Source: a virus (taxonomy: Duplodnaviria; Heunggongvirae; Uroviricota; Caudoviricetes). From it: a DNA stretch of 62,355 bases. The stretch lies in IMG/VR virus record IMGVR_UViG_2534682166_000005; one strand, given 5' to 3'. This document shows, piece by piece, positions 55,001-58,000 of the stretch. Numbering within the stretch: the stretch's first letter is position 1; every line of letters starts with the position of its first letter. Position numbers: made by a program.

Positions 55001-58000
55001 AACTATGAATGAAACAGAACTGAAGCACATTATCGCCCTGCTTCTGGAAGATGCCAGACAGGTTTATCGACTTAGCCCAAATTCCGCAACGCTGACACGC
55101 ATCCAGATGGCAGAAAAAGCACTGAAACAGGACAATGGAAACGGCATATCCAAATTTAGCGCCGCCAGTGAAAATGAAGTAATAGAAATAAACAGCAATA
55201 TCAGCGACAGTTGCGTCGCTTACAGCCACCAAATAATTCGTGTAAGTGCAAGAATAATGGAAGTGATGGCAAGTGAGCTTGAAAAGAACAACATCAAACC
55301 CACTGATTGTTGTTTAAGAACCGTAATGAACGTTATTTATTACTCGATGTTCCGAAGTCGCTAACAGCGTCGAGTTTTTCATCAAAAAATGATTCAAATG
55401 CATCGTAAAATACGGCAATAGCACCGCCCTTATCTACCGCGGCAGGAACTGCCTTTTGAGGTATATCTTTCTCCCTGAATTGTGTGTTGTAGGTATCGAC
55501 AGCCAGCCGCATCAGAAACATCACTTTTTCTTCTTGTGTCATAAATTCACTCTCCTTACGGGGTTTGTAGTTGAGGAGTTCTCCACGGGTGAGGTGGAGA
55601 TCGTGCGCCGGACACGGGTGAGTTCCGGCACTCTCAGTTTACTGAACAGACATTACCCTGAAAGCCAGGGTACAACACGAAAGTGCACGGCGAAGACTCT
55701 TACCCATTGAAGGCTTGTCGTTAGATTTCTTCGACCGTGCGCTTCCGGTTGTGAATAACAACATTGCTGTGTGTAGCCCTTGGCGGACATCGGTTTGCCG
55801 ATTGCTGATGTCCGCCCTTTTTAAAGTGAATTTTGTGATGCGGTGAATGCGGCTATGCGCACGCGGAACAGTTAAACCGACAGGATGTCACGGAAAGTCA
55901 TCGTCCCCTGACCCGGCGTTAGTTGTTAACTGGTTAACGTCACCCGGAGGCACCAGGCACCGCATCAACAAAGTTCATTTGTGAAAATGGAGATAATTAT
56001 GATTGCTCATCACTTCGGAACTGATGAAATACCACGTCAGTGCGTGACGCCTGGCGATTATGTTCTTCATGAAGGTCGGACATATATCGCTTCAGCAAAC
56101 AATATTGAAAAGAGAAAACTCTATATTCGTAACTTCACAACAAAAACATGCATTACCGACTGCATGATTAAAGTTTTCATCGGGCGCGATGGCTTACCCG
56201 TAAAAGCAGCGTCGTTGTGACGAGTAATAAAATACACCTTCCATATCTGTAACAGACAAGCCGAAATAAAACCGCATTAATTATCAATCACGGAAAAATC
56301 AAAATGAAAGAACTTGCGCAAAATGAAATATTTTCCAAAACCAGTCCTGATGCAATAAATGAACTCAAAGAAATTGCAGAACGCATCAGTAAAATATGCA
56401 AAGAATACAAAATCGACTTTGTATTTTCTTTTTCAGTGCTTACAGAAGTTGGAAATAACGAATATAAGGACAGTCGTTTTGTTTTATGTGGGTTAAATGG
56501 CAAAACACCAAGCCCATATATTCATGCTGCACGTGAAGTTGTCAGAAGCAACATTGGAGTACAACAAATCCATACACTTGCACAGGCTCTTGAGTTTGCA
56601 AGAGAAAATTCTGAGTGCGACTGCCCTGAATGCCAGCACGAAAAGGGAAAAACAACTCACAAAACAGCAAACCAGGCAACCTTCCACTGAAATAAAAATC
56701 CGGCAGCGCAGGCTACCGGATTTCTCCCTGCGTCACCGTATTCGGAGAAATCAGACAAAGGGCCGCTAATTCTAATCCAGCCAGAGGTTTAAATACAATG
56801 AGCGCTGATAAACAGACTTTTGCACTACACTGCGAAGCAAAAAACGATAAAGTCAGAAAACGCCTTGGCATCAAAGGCGGTTTTTTCTGGACCGAGGCCA
56901 GAAAACTTTCTGTCGCAGTTTCCCGCTGCATTGCAGCCATGGACGATGCAGGCTACGACGAGGATGATTTCAAAAAACCCGTTCGCGTAAATTTCCCCGT
57001 CGTGAATGACCTTCCACCGGAAGGCGTGTTTGATACTGAATTCTGCAACCGCTATGAAAAAGGCGGTAACGATGGCATCACCATGATGGCTATCCCCTTC
57101 GATGACAACATCAACGGTGAAGATGCCACAACTGCTGGCGATGACAACGATAACCTGGACGGAACTATTCCGGATGATGTGGAGAAAAGCGAATCCCCGG
57201 ACAGCGACGATGACTGTTCTGAGTGTGAAATTCCCGTCGCCACTCTGAGCCTTACTCATCGCTTCCTTCACCTCTTCTTATTCAGCAAAGATGAAGATGG
57301 AAAATACCGGCATCATGCCACACCAGAACAACGCAATAACGTGATCCGTATGGAGATGGACACAGAGGACAGTTACCTTCAGAGCCTGCTTACTGCTGTG
57401 CGCGCCGCGCATCATGAACTGGATAAACTGACGAACTATCACCTTAGTCGCCTGGCTGAATCTGTAGGGAAAGCATTCCCCCACTCTGCAAATCATCGCA
57501 TCAGCCCGGCTGAATTCGACAAGTTCATTTCCACCTGGATGAAAACTGACTACCTTGATCAGGGCCTGCTGACAAAAGAATGGCAGAACGGAAATTATGT
57601 TTCAGGCATTACCCGTACGCCTTCCGGTGCTAACGCTGGCGGCGGAAATATTACCGATCGTGGTGAAGGATTCAAACATGATAAGACATCACTCGCACGA
57701 GATGTAGCCACCGGCGTTCTGGCCCGTTCAATGGATGTGGATATTTATAACCTGCACCCAGCACACGCAAAACGCGTTGAAGAAATCGTGTCAGAGAATA
57801 AGCCGCCCTTTTCTGTTTTTCGCGACAAATTTATCGCCATGCCCGGTGGGCTGGATTATTCCCGCGCCATTGTGGTGGCTTCCGTGAAAGAAGCACCAAT
57901 CGGCATTGAGGCCATCCCGGCACGCGTGACTGAATATCTCAACAAAGTGTTGACCGAAACCGATCACACTAACCCGGATCCGGAAATCGTGGAAATTGCC

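Follow-up and report, generated by a model that had tools for sequence, protein, structure and literature searches.

The orf69-kil interval of the early-left operon

IMGVR_UViG_2534682166_000005 is a 62,355-nucleotide IMG/VR record of a virus of the Caudoviricetes, and its whole length is referred to here as the window. In the early-left (pL) operon of this lambdoid prophage, a spacer of 456 bp (55543-55998) extends from the start of orf69, a small gene on the minus strand, to the start of kil, which is transcribed from the plus strand and encodes a cell-division inhibitor. A sequence search with positions 55300-56000 gave 100% identity to chromosomes of the Escherichia coli O104:H4 outbreak lineage and 99.3% identity to phage PhiR5_2 (PV340546). 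A first-pass annotation of this DNA took the plus strand to be that of the pL operon, which is borne out by the lambda-like pL, the P22-type boxB and the N gene, all located upstream (Table 1). It further reported a 69-amino acid open reading frame (ORF) with a strong ribosome-binding site running against the operon, a terminator located 240 bp from the ORF start, a distance that our coordinates reproduce, and some 440 bp of intervening non-coding DNA.

The spacer is a three-part non-coding cassette, composed of a structured leader, an exchangeable small RNA (sRNA) module and a leader resembling the STnc100 RNA that runs into kil. None of the ORFs within its 456 bp is conserved. The 45-codon ORF at 55847-55984, in the kil leader, was rejected as a gene, its length varying from 11 to 50 codons, with differing C-termini, among 67 homologous leaders. 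Also rejected was a leader mini-ORF that follows AAGGAG, whose GTG is lost in the variants with GGGTCAGG. The spacer was thus correctly described as non-coding, but nearly all of it is a conserved cassette, shared with the E. coli K-12 prophages Rac (KilS) and Qin (DicF), that serves the downstream kil.

A probable KilS-type small RNA ending at the terminator

When the 45 nt upstream of each run of at least four T were folded on both strands of the entire window, the hairpin at 55782-55822 ranked second of 312 hairpin-plus-T-run candidates, with -23.1 kcal/mol; the first was located at 49775-49821 on the plus strand (-30.9 kcal/mol). The hairpin was missing from the list of a built-in simple terminator scan, which accepts loops of 3-8 nt only, because its 9-nt loop exceeds that limit. 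A strong terminator is therefore present, as had been claimed, but it had been taken to stand by itself, as an interruption of the operon; we identify it as the predicted 3′ end of a plus-strand sRNA of the KilS type. In the minimum free energy fold of this sRNA (z = -3.1), a free seed, spanning approximately 55745-55781 with sequence UGAAUAACAACAUUGCUGUGUGUAG, is followed by the 13-bp hairpin. The earlier suggestion that the spacer might hold an sRNA or the promoter of the minus-strand ORF consequently stands for its first part, with the qualification that the sRNA lies on the pL strand and is not tied to the minus-strand gene; for the second part, the promoter candidates are weak.

The K-12 Rac prophage has the gene order ydaG-ydaF-sieB-kilS-kilR, with sieB on the opposite strand and kilS annotated as ncRNA b4833, while the order in Qin is ydfC-dicF-dicB. 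KilS was predicted by RIL-seq (ligation and sequencing of interacting RNAs), in whose chimeras it is found, and verified by northern analysis; its transcription start was mapped to 1418502 and an RNase E site to 1418471 (Bar et al. 2021, PMC8175672). In a three-way alignment, the entire window spacer is homologous to the Rac and Qin spacers: 55563-55755 matches the ydfC-dicF spacer of Qin, 55729-55822 matches KilS of Rac, and from the T-run to the kil or dicB start codon the three share a near-identical leader. The window sRNA and KilS are identical in 78 of 100 aligned columns, and from CCGGTTGT to the terminator base they differ by four mismatches with no gaps, the similarity being concentrated in the seed. 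Both occupy one slot on the kil strand, flanked by the early-left accessory genes and by kil, and both have a near-identical seed, the terminator base GGCGG...CCGCCCUUUUU, the downstream leader and a 3′ end formed by a terminator. They differ in the terminator loop and upper stem, in the 5′ 14 nt and the upstream leader (Qin-type in the window), in the extended -10 element, which is degraded in the window, and in the opposite-strand neighbour, which is orf69 and not sieB.

An Rfam search with permissive thresholds returned two sub-threshold matches in the spacer, to DicF and to STnc100. The first of them (RF00039, 55768-55817, 29.5 bits, E = 0.0017), together with a cassette and position that are those of dicF and with an adjacent division inhibitor, would be consistent with a member of the DicF family that represses ftsZ translation in cooperation with Kil. 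The upstream leader, the T-run junction and the downstream STnc100-like leader, all preceding a division inhibitor, are indeed shared with Qin, as is the location, which in both cases is within the early-left operon and flanked by small ORFs and that inhibitor, and the biogenesis is likely the same, by termination and RNase E/III processing. Nevertheless, the match scores below the gathering score of 48 and covers mainly the terminator, as does most of the identity to DicF (44/64). The ftsZ-pairing seed of DicF, UUUCUGGUGAC, is absent from the window sRNA, whose seed differs, and Qin carries an extra insertion of ~120 nt before DicF. Targets were predicted by comparing seed duplexes with those of dinucleotide-shuffled seeds, and the duplex with the ftsZ leader was weaker than the shuffled ones (z = +0.9); no ftsZ pairing is predicted. 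We consider it extremely unlikely that the window sRNA acts as a DicF. It is a partial homologue of the Qin DicF, but based on score and seed it falls outside the DicF family, while its location, homology and 3′ terminator place it with KilS.

Two further identities were raised by the seed, which contains AACAACA. AgvB was suspected from the ACAACA motif and was rejected, since neither RF02702 nor RF02703 matched at E <= 1 and AgvB maps to the late region. The sRNAs AgvB and AsxR of enterohaemorrhagic E. coli prophages also combine a variable 5′ seed with a conserved 3′ terminator module (~42 nt) at a fixed lambdoid position; however, theirs is a late 'moron' site downstream of pR′ (Tree et al. 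2014, PMC4104026), they are 51-60 nt long and their sequence is unrelated, whereas the window sRNA is early-left. A KilS-type RNA could also be an anti-sRNA that, like AgvB, sponges GcvB by mimicking its CA-rich targets. The duplex predicted with R1 of GcvB, at -30.8 kcal/mol, compares with -20.7 +/- 2.7 kcal/mol for shuffled seeds (z = -3.7), and 2 of 300 shuffles were as good. However, among the 17,806 38-mers of the window the seed ranked just 744th for GcvB pairing (top 4%), and its longest unbroken complementarity to R1 was unremarkable, so that the pairing stood out against shuffled seeds and not against the genomic background. Additionally, AgvB itself gave no Rfam match and resides at a different site, and for K-12 KilS the only partner named in the text and tables searched of PMC8175672 is yncL. 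We consider the GcvB sponge very improbable. The pairing of the seed with the 3′ end of orf119 was marginal (z = -2.3 against shuffles).

Table 1. Features of the orf69-kil interval and of the wider prophage. Positions are those of the window.
Feature	Position	Strand	Description
orf119	55005..55364	+	Early-left gene, convergent with orf69; overlaps the orf69 3′ end by 32 nt
Hairpin followed by CUUUUC	55281..55315	-	-8.3 kcal/mol; 18 nt past the orf69 stop, inside orf119 (other strand); possible weak terminator
orf69	55333..55542	-	ATG start; 69 amino acids, acidic, two predicted helices; phrog_2605
Shine-Dalgarno of orf69	55550..55557	-	AAGGAGAG; 7 nt before the ATG
Extended -10 of orf69	55577..55585	-	TGGAGAACT; candidate, 34 nt upstream of the ATG
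Second promoter of orf69	55664-55636	-	Weak candidate; -35 CTTTCA, -10 TAAACT
Structured leader	55563..55730	+	Conserved; homologous to the Qin ydfC-dicF spacer
Long-range helix	55673-55696 with 55730-55755	+	~20 bp, -28.3 kcal/mol; candidate RNase III site
TAGATT	55722..55727	+	Degraded counterpart of the KilS -10; Rac TGtTAAATT, window CGtTAGATT
KilS-type sRNA	55731..55822	+	~90 nt; 5′ end placed by homology to the start mapped in K-12
Rho-independent terminator, sRNA 3′ module	55782..55822	+	GGCGGACAUCGGU...GCUGAUGUCCGCC; 13-bp stem, 9-nt loop, UUUUU
STnc100-like kil leader	55819..56013	+	Rfam RF02076, 26.5 bits, below the gathering score of 47
kil	55999..56220	+	KilR family FtsZ/cell-division inhibitor; phrog_294; NF008465, 154.9 bits
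pL promoter	53596-53624	+	TTGACA-17-GATACT; lambda OL1-like operator; control region 53596..53707
boxB, P22-type	53693-53707	+	GCGCTGACAAAGCGC
N	53873-54256	+	Downstream of pL and boxB
STnc100, true copy	40894-41099	-	Rfam, 165 bits; just downstream of Q, the place where one would look for a late-promoter leader
C4 antisense RNA	44110-44194	-	Rfam, above threshold
isrK	44220-44297	-	Rfam, above threshold
sok	46174-46348	-	Rfam, above threshold

Exchangeable seeds between conserved flanks

Scanning IMG/VR for the junction between the sRNA and the downstream leader, CCCTTTTTAAAGTGAATTTTGTGATG, we found at least 120 loci. Together with other fetched loci and the window itself they provide 125 oriented segments, the listed loci on which the following counts are based. 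The majority of the seeds between the conserved flanks are of the DicF type; the KilS type, with which the window sRNA groups, comprises 22 distinct variants, and at least four seeds are of neither type. The KilS seed is joined to four different terminator hairpins, that of DicF included. KilS-type seeds accompany kil 29 times and dicB twice, while DicF-type seeds accompany dicB 67 times and kil four times (Fisher p = 7e-19); the modules being neighbours, physical linkage rather than function may account for this association.

Further seeds found in the slot include CACAAUAUCCAUGUGUAGUCUUUGGUGG, CAACAACCCAUGUUGAUUACCUUUUGGCGGG and GUAGCCAGUGCAACCUCGUGGUGUACCCAUUGGCGG, which were assigned to no described family; the contigs carrying such seeds are L007, L022, L027, L048, L055, L075, L093, L098, L099, L103 and L111.

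The third part of the cassette, the kil leader, is closed by a helix of GAUGCGGUG (55837-55845) with CACCGCAUC (55958-55966), a candidate RNase III site. Among viral contigs, a near-identical leader is found in front of kil, of dicB and of a third gene, whose product starts with MLNVAIENQ. With the true STnc100 of the same prophage the leader shares the core GGUGAAU...UCACCnGGAGGCACCnGGCACC and the closing helix; the true copy, however, is located downstream of Q on the other strand and scores far higher (Table 1). The inner hairpin has CCUGG/CCAGG in most kil and dicB leaders and CCGGG/CCCGG in true STnc100, a compensatory difference, and contains a C-A mismatch in the window. The structural relation of the kil leader to STnc100 is weak.

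orf69 as a protein-coding gene

The length of orf69 is unremarkable by itself, as 5.5 kb yielded 69 ORFs of 30 amino acids or more. It could be a chance reverse-strand ORF kept open by constraint on the plus strand, since short ORFs are common, its 3′ end overlaps orf119 and the region upstream of it is conserved non-coding DNA. Its overlap with another gene, however, amounts to just 32 nt. The ratio of non-synonymous to synonymous substitution rates (dN/dS) is 0.35-0.44 in comparison with homologues of 60% and 46% identity, and the invariant first 16 codons show 2-5 synonymous differences and 0-1 non-synonymous ones; this excess of synonymous changes indicates conservation at the protein level. 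Homologues at 30-45% identity still have this length and two-helix pattern and carry the motif MTxEEKVMFLMRLAV...IYxKFE, and the slot and orientation are retained in Edwardsiella phage EPP-1. Additionally, orf69 has a strong Shine-Dalgarno sequence, which is conserved in contig L126 and reads GGAGGG in L132. A chance ORF is thus very improbable, and orf69 is, by its pattern of substitution and conservation, a genuine protein-coding gene lying antisense within the early-left operon. The ribosome-binding site reported in the first-pass annotation is AAGGAGAG, and the family to which the protein belongs is under purifying selection. In RefSeq, the gene is annotated in the O104:H4 prophage as a hypothetical protein (WP_000189936.1).

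The homology search that had been recommended for this ORF revealed a tiny family, with no match that carries a function: orf69 aligns over its full length with phrog_2605 (residues 1-69 of 69, E = 1.5e-45), which is listed as of unknown function, and has no match in Pfam, NCBIfam or PADLOC. We found 15 homologues in a set of 5.8 billion proteins and 16 cluster representatives of the family among 1.84 billion. Members are 58-69 amino acids long, with the N-terminus MTxEEKVMFLMRLAV and IExIYxKFExxLDKKL in the second half, a pattern that is coherent down to ~30% identity. The orf69 protein has an isoelectric point of 4.55 and a highest 19-residue hydropathy of 0.99, and no hydrophobic or transmembrane segment was found in it.

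The analogy drawn earlier with the exclusion genes of lambdoid phages is apt as to position. The sieB gene of Rac, which lambda and P22 also have, is a superinfection exclusion gene that occupies the slot and orientation of orf69 in an early-left operon, on the opposite strand and directly upstream of the kilS-kilR cassette. The products differ: K-12 SieB has 162 amino acids, whereas that of orf69 has 69, is acidic and lacks a hydrophobic segment. No sequence similarity between the two was detected, and the tblastn matches of SieB fall at other loci, not at the orf69 locus.

Genomic context and expression of orf69

In the listed loci, the slot ahead of the cassette is taken by ydfC on the same strand, by sieB on the opposite strand or by orf119 with orf69, or is empty. 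In every context examined, genes of the orf69 family are antisense to the early-left operon, whether adjoining KilS-kil, adjoining DicF-dicB, adjoining a dicB/ydfD-like cluster that immediately follows the repressor gene, or in Edwardsiella phage EPP-1. In four of the five context types, the gene has a convergent, overlapping neighbour ending in LEKxxIKPTxxxLRxVM. The C-terminal motif LEKxxIKPTxxxLRxVMxxI is located at 55260-55364 (+) in the window and is present in L126, L132, L139 and L143, in proteins of 118-201 amino acids whose N-terminal parts are unrelated; the fifth context (L136) has no partner bearing the motif. The shared C-terminal sequence suggests that it and orf69 form a co-inherited two-gene module.

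Distant relatives of orf69 have good extended -10 elements, TGGTATCTT, TGGTATCCT and TGCTATTGT, at 30-33 nt before the start codon, and counting the candidate of the window, extended -10-like elements occur 30-34 nt before the start codons in four context types. The 5′ untranslated region (UTR) of orf69 is homologous between contexts as well. The homologous 5′ UTR and the elements at the same distance support orf69 as an independent transcription unit, weakly so in the window, and the gene probably has its own promoter with a weak extended -10.

In Qin (K-12, L005 ~2540-2600), the homologue of the orf69 promoter candidate and the first part of the 5′ UTR, GTGGAGAACTCCTTAATTACTAACC, are retained while ydfC replaces the ORF, an arrangement resembling the scar that a replaced module would leave.

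We propose that orf69 is carried as a module that includes its short 5′ UTR and, in most cases, the C-terminal domain of the upstream gene converging on it; in antisense orientation, this module would have entered the operon at the position taken by sieB in Rac. With pL repressed, orf69 would be transcribed on its own; upon induction, converging transcription from pL would shut it off. The most likely reading of orf69 is accordingly that of a lysogen-expressed accessory ('moron') protein.

Proposed release of the small RNA and read-through into kil

No promoter is dedicated to DicF: transcription terminates early in a Rho-independent manner and RNase E then trims the RNA, and an alternative 3′ end arises when RNase III cleaves the read-through operon transcript (PMC9438474). 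The counterpart of the KilS promoter in the window has a poor -35 element and matches at 7/12 positions overall. In long transcripts, the predicted long-range helix of the structured leader would sequester the sRNA's 5′ part; the alignment contains one compensatory A-U to G-C difference in this helix between the window/Qin type and Rac.

The RNA polymerase modified by N passes terminators, which is established lambda biology, and both N and boxB are present here. The hairpin at 55782-55822, GC-rich, followed by a U-run and placed downstream of pL, boxB and N, fits the layout of a pL-operon terminator subject to N antitermination. After induction, N-modified polymerase starting at pL would read through the hairpin, allowing kil, recE, gam and bet to be expressed, while unmodified or leaky transcripts would end at it and the toxic Kil would stay silent. 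The sRNA would be freed by termination combined with processing through RNase III and RNase E, as for DicF. Given the degraded KilS promoter, its independent transcription is probably weak, and it would probably derive from pL transcripts. Once free, and together with Hfq, it would pair with host mRNAs through the seed, with targets other than those of DicF.

Weighing the proposed roles

Taken together, we think it probable that the terminator is the 3′ end of a KilS-type sRNA in a conserved cassette before kil and that orf69 is a real antisense accessory gene. Several results count against this interpretation. Compared with Rac, the KilS promoter counterpart lacks the TG of its extended -10 element and deviates in one position of the -10 hexamer, and no sigma-70 site with at least 8/12 matches or with an extended -10 was found on either strand of 55480-55900; independent transcription of the sRNA is therefore doubtful in the window. 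The predicted pairing of the seed with ftsZ, yncL, the kil leader and the orf69 mRNA was no better than that of shuffled seeds, and no convincing target emerged among 116 phage translation start regions. Two alignments of the terminator and leader contained 1 and 0 double-sided changes, respectively, the relatives being too similar or misaligned at indels to reveal covariation. As for orf69, its candidate -10 hexamer matches at 3 of 6 positions. The AlphaFold model, a helical hairpin of residues 3-22 and 38-61, is of low confidence (predicted local distance difference test score 67, predicted template modelling score 0.29, two runs), and Foldseek searches with it against BFVD and the PDB found nothing. 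The gene is also rare, being present in 4 of the 125 listed cassettes, and the full arrangement occurs in ~65 of 5426 complete E. coli genomes.

The hairpin might instead be only a terminator of the lambda tL type that gates kil and the recombination genes through N, with no functional sRNA. N and boxB are located upstream, a barrier before the toxic Kil would be sensible, and the degraded KilS promoter counterpart, with no good promoter elsewhere, agrees with this. Nevertheless, it is the stretch just upstream of the hairpin that is best conserved relative to KilS, while the hairpin loop varies, and one seed is joined to four terminators among the listed loci. A conserved seed with variable loops and terminators points to selection on the seed, not on termination alone. 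Additionally, DicF is made from the same cassette without its own promoter. Termination alone is thus an unlikely account, and we favour the KilS-type sRNA.

A broader proposal is that the slot is a seed-exchange cassette, in which the flanks let recombination swap seeds, so that DicF, KilS and at least four more would be alleles with different host targets, co-expressed with Kil or DicB. The conserved flanks may in this case be the processing leader, the terminator base with its T-run, and the STnc100-like leader. Separately, orf69 and the C-terminal domain of its neighbour may constitute a previously undescribed two-gene module, maintained from E. coli through to phages of Edwardsiella, whose expression runs against the early-left operon. 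The two parts jointly are offered as a tentative possibility.

Other features of the prophage

The control region (53590-54256, +) is a hybrid, with a pL/OL1 operator near-identical to that of lambda followed by a P22-type boxB and an N of the P22/H-19B type. The 127-codon ORF of N is intact in the window, whereas in RefSeq the N of the identical O104:H4 prophage is tagged as a pseudogene and incomplete. The RefSeq order of that copy is a LexA-family repressor, two accessory genes, N, a 237-amino acid protein, a 119-amino acid protein, the 69-amino acid protein (opposite strand), kil, a 128-amino acid protein, recE, gam and bet. A DUF1828 protein (52602-53378, +) and, upstream of it, a 180-amino acid hypothetical protein are encoded between the repressor gene and pL, where lambda has rexAB, and may be a pair of accessory proteins expressed in the lysogen. 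The minus strand carries Q and the late genes, at around 38-42 kb. Rfam matches above threshold elsewhere in the prophage number four, all on the minus strand (Table 1). The initial assumption of a Stx2 phage was abandoned, as no Stx1 or Stx2 signal-peptide sequences were present anywhere in the window, and no stx genes.

Implications

KilS, barely characterised in K-12, is here linked to DicF, the two being variants of one cassette. This link suggests that sRNAs with different seeds occupy the slot in many prophages of pathogens, which would be a ready source of host-targeting regulators expressed together with division inhibitors. In the prophage of the O104:H4 outbreak lineage, a 456-bp unannotated "intergenic" region, in which RefSeq shows no RNA feature, would thereby gain a function, and the antisense 69-amino acid gene beside it is a clean candidate for an accessory function expressed in the lysogen.

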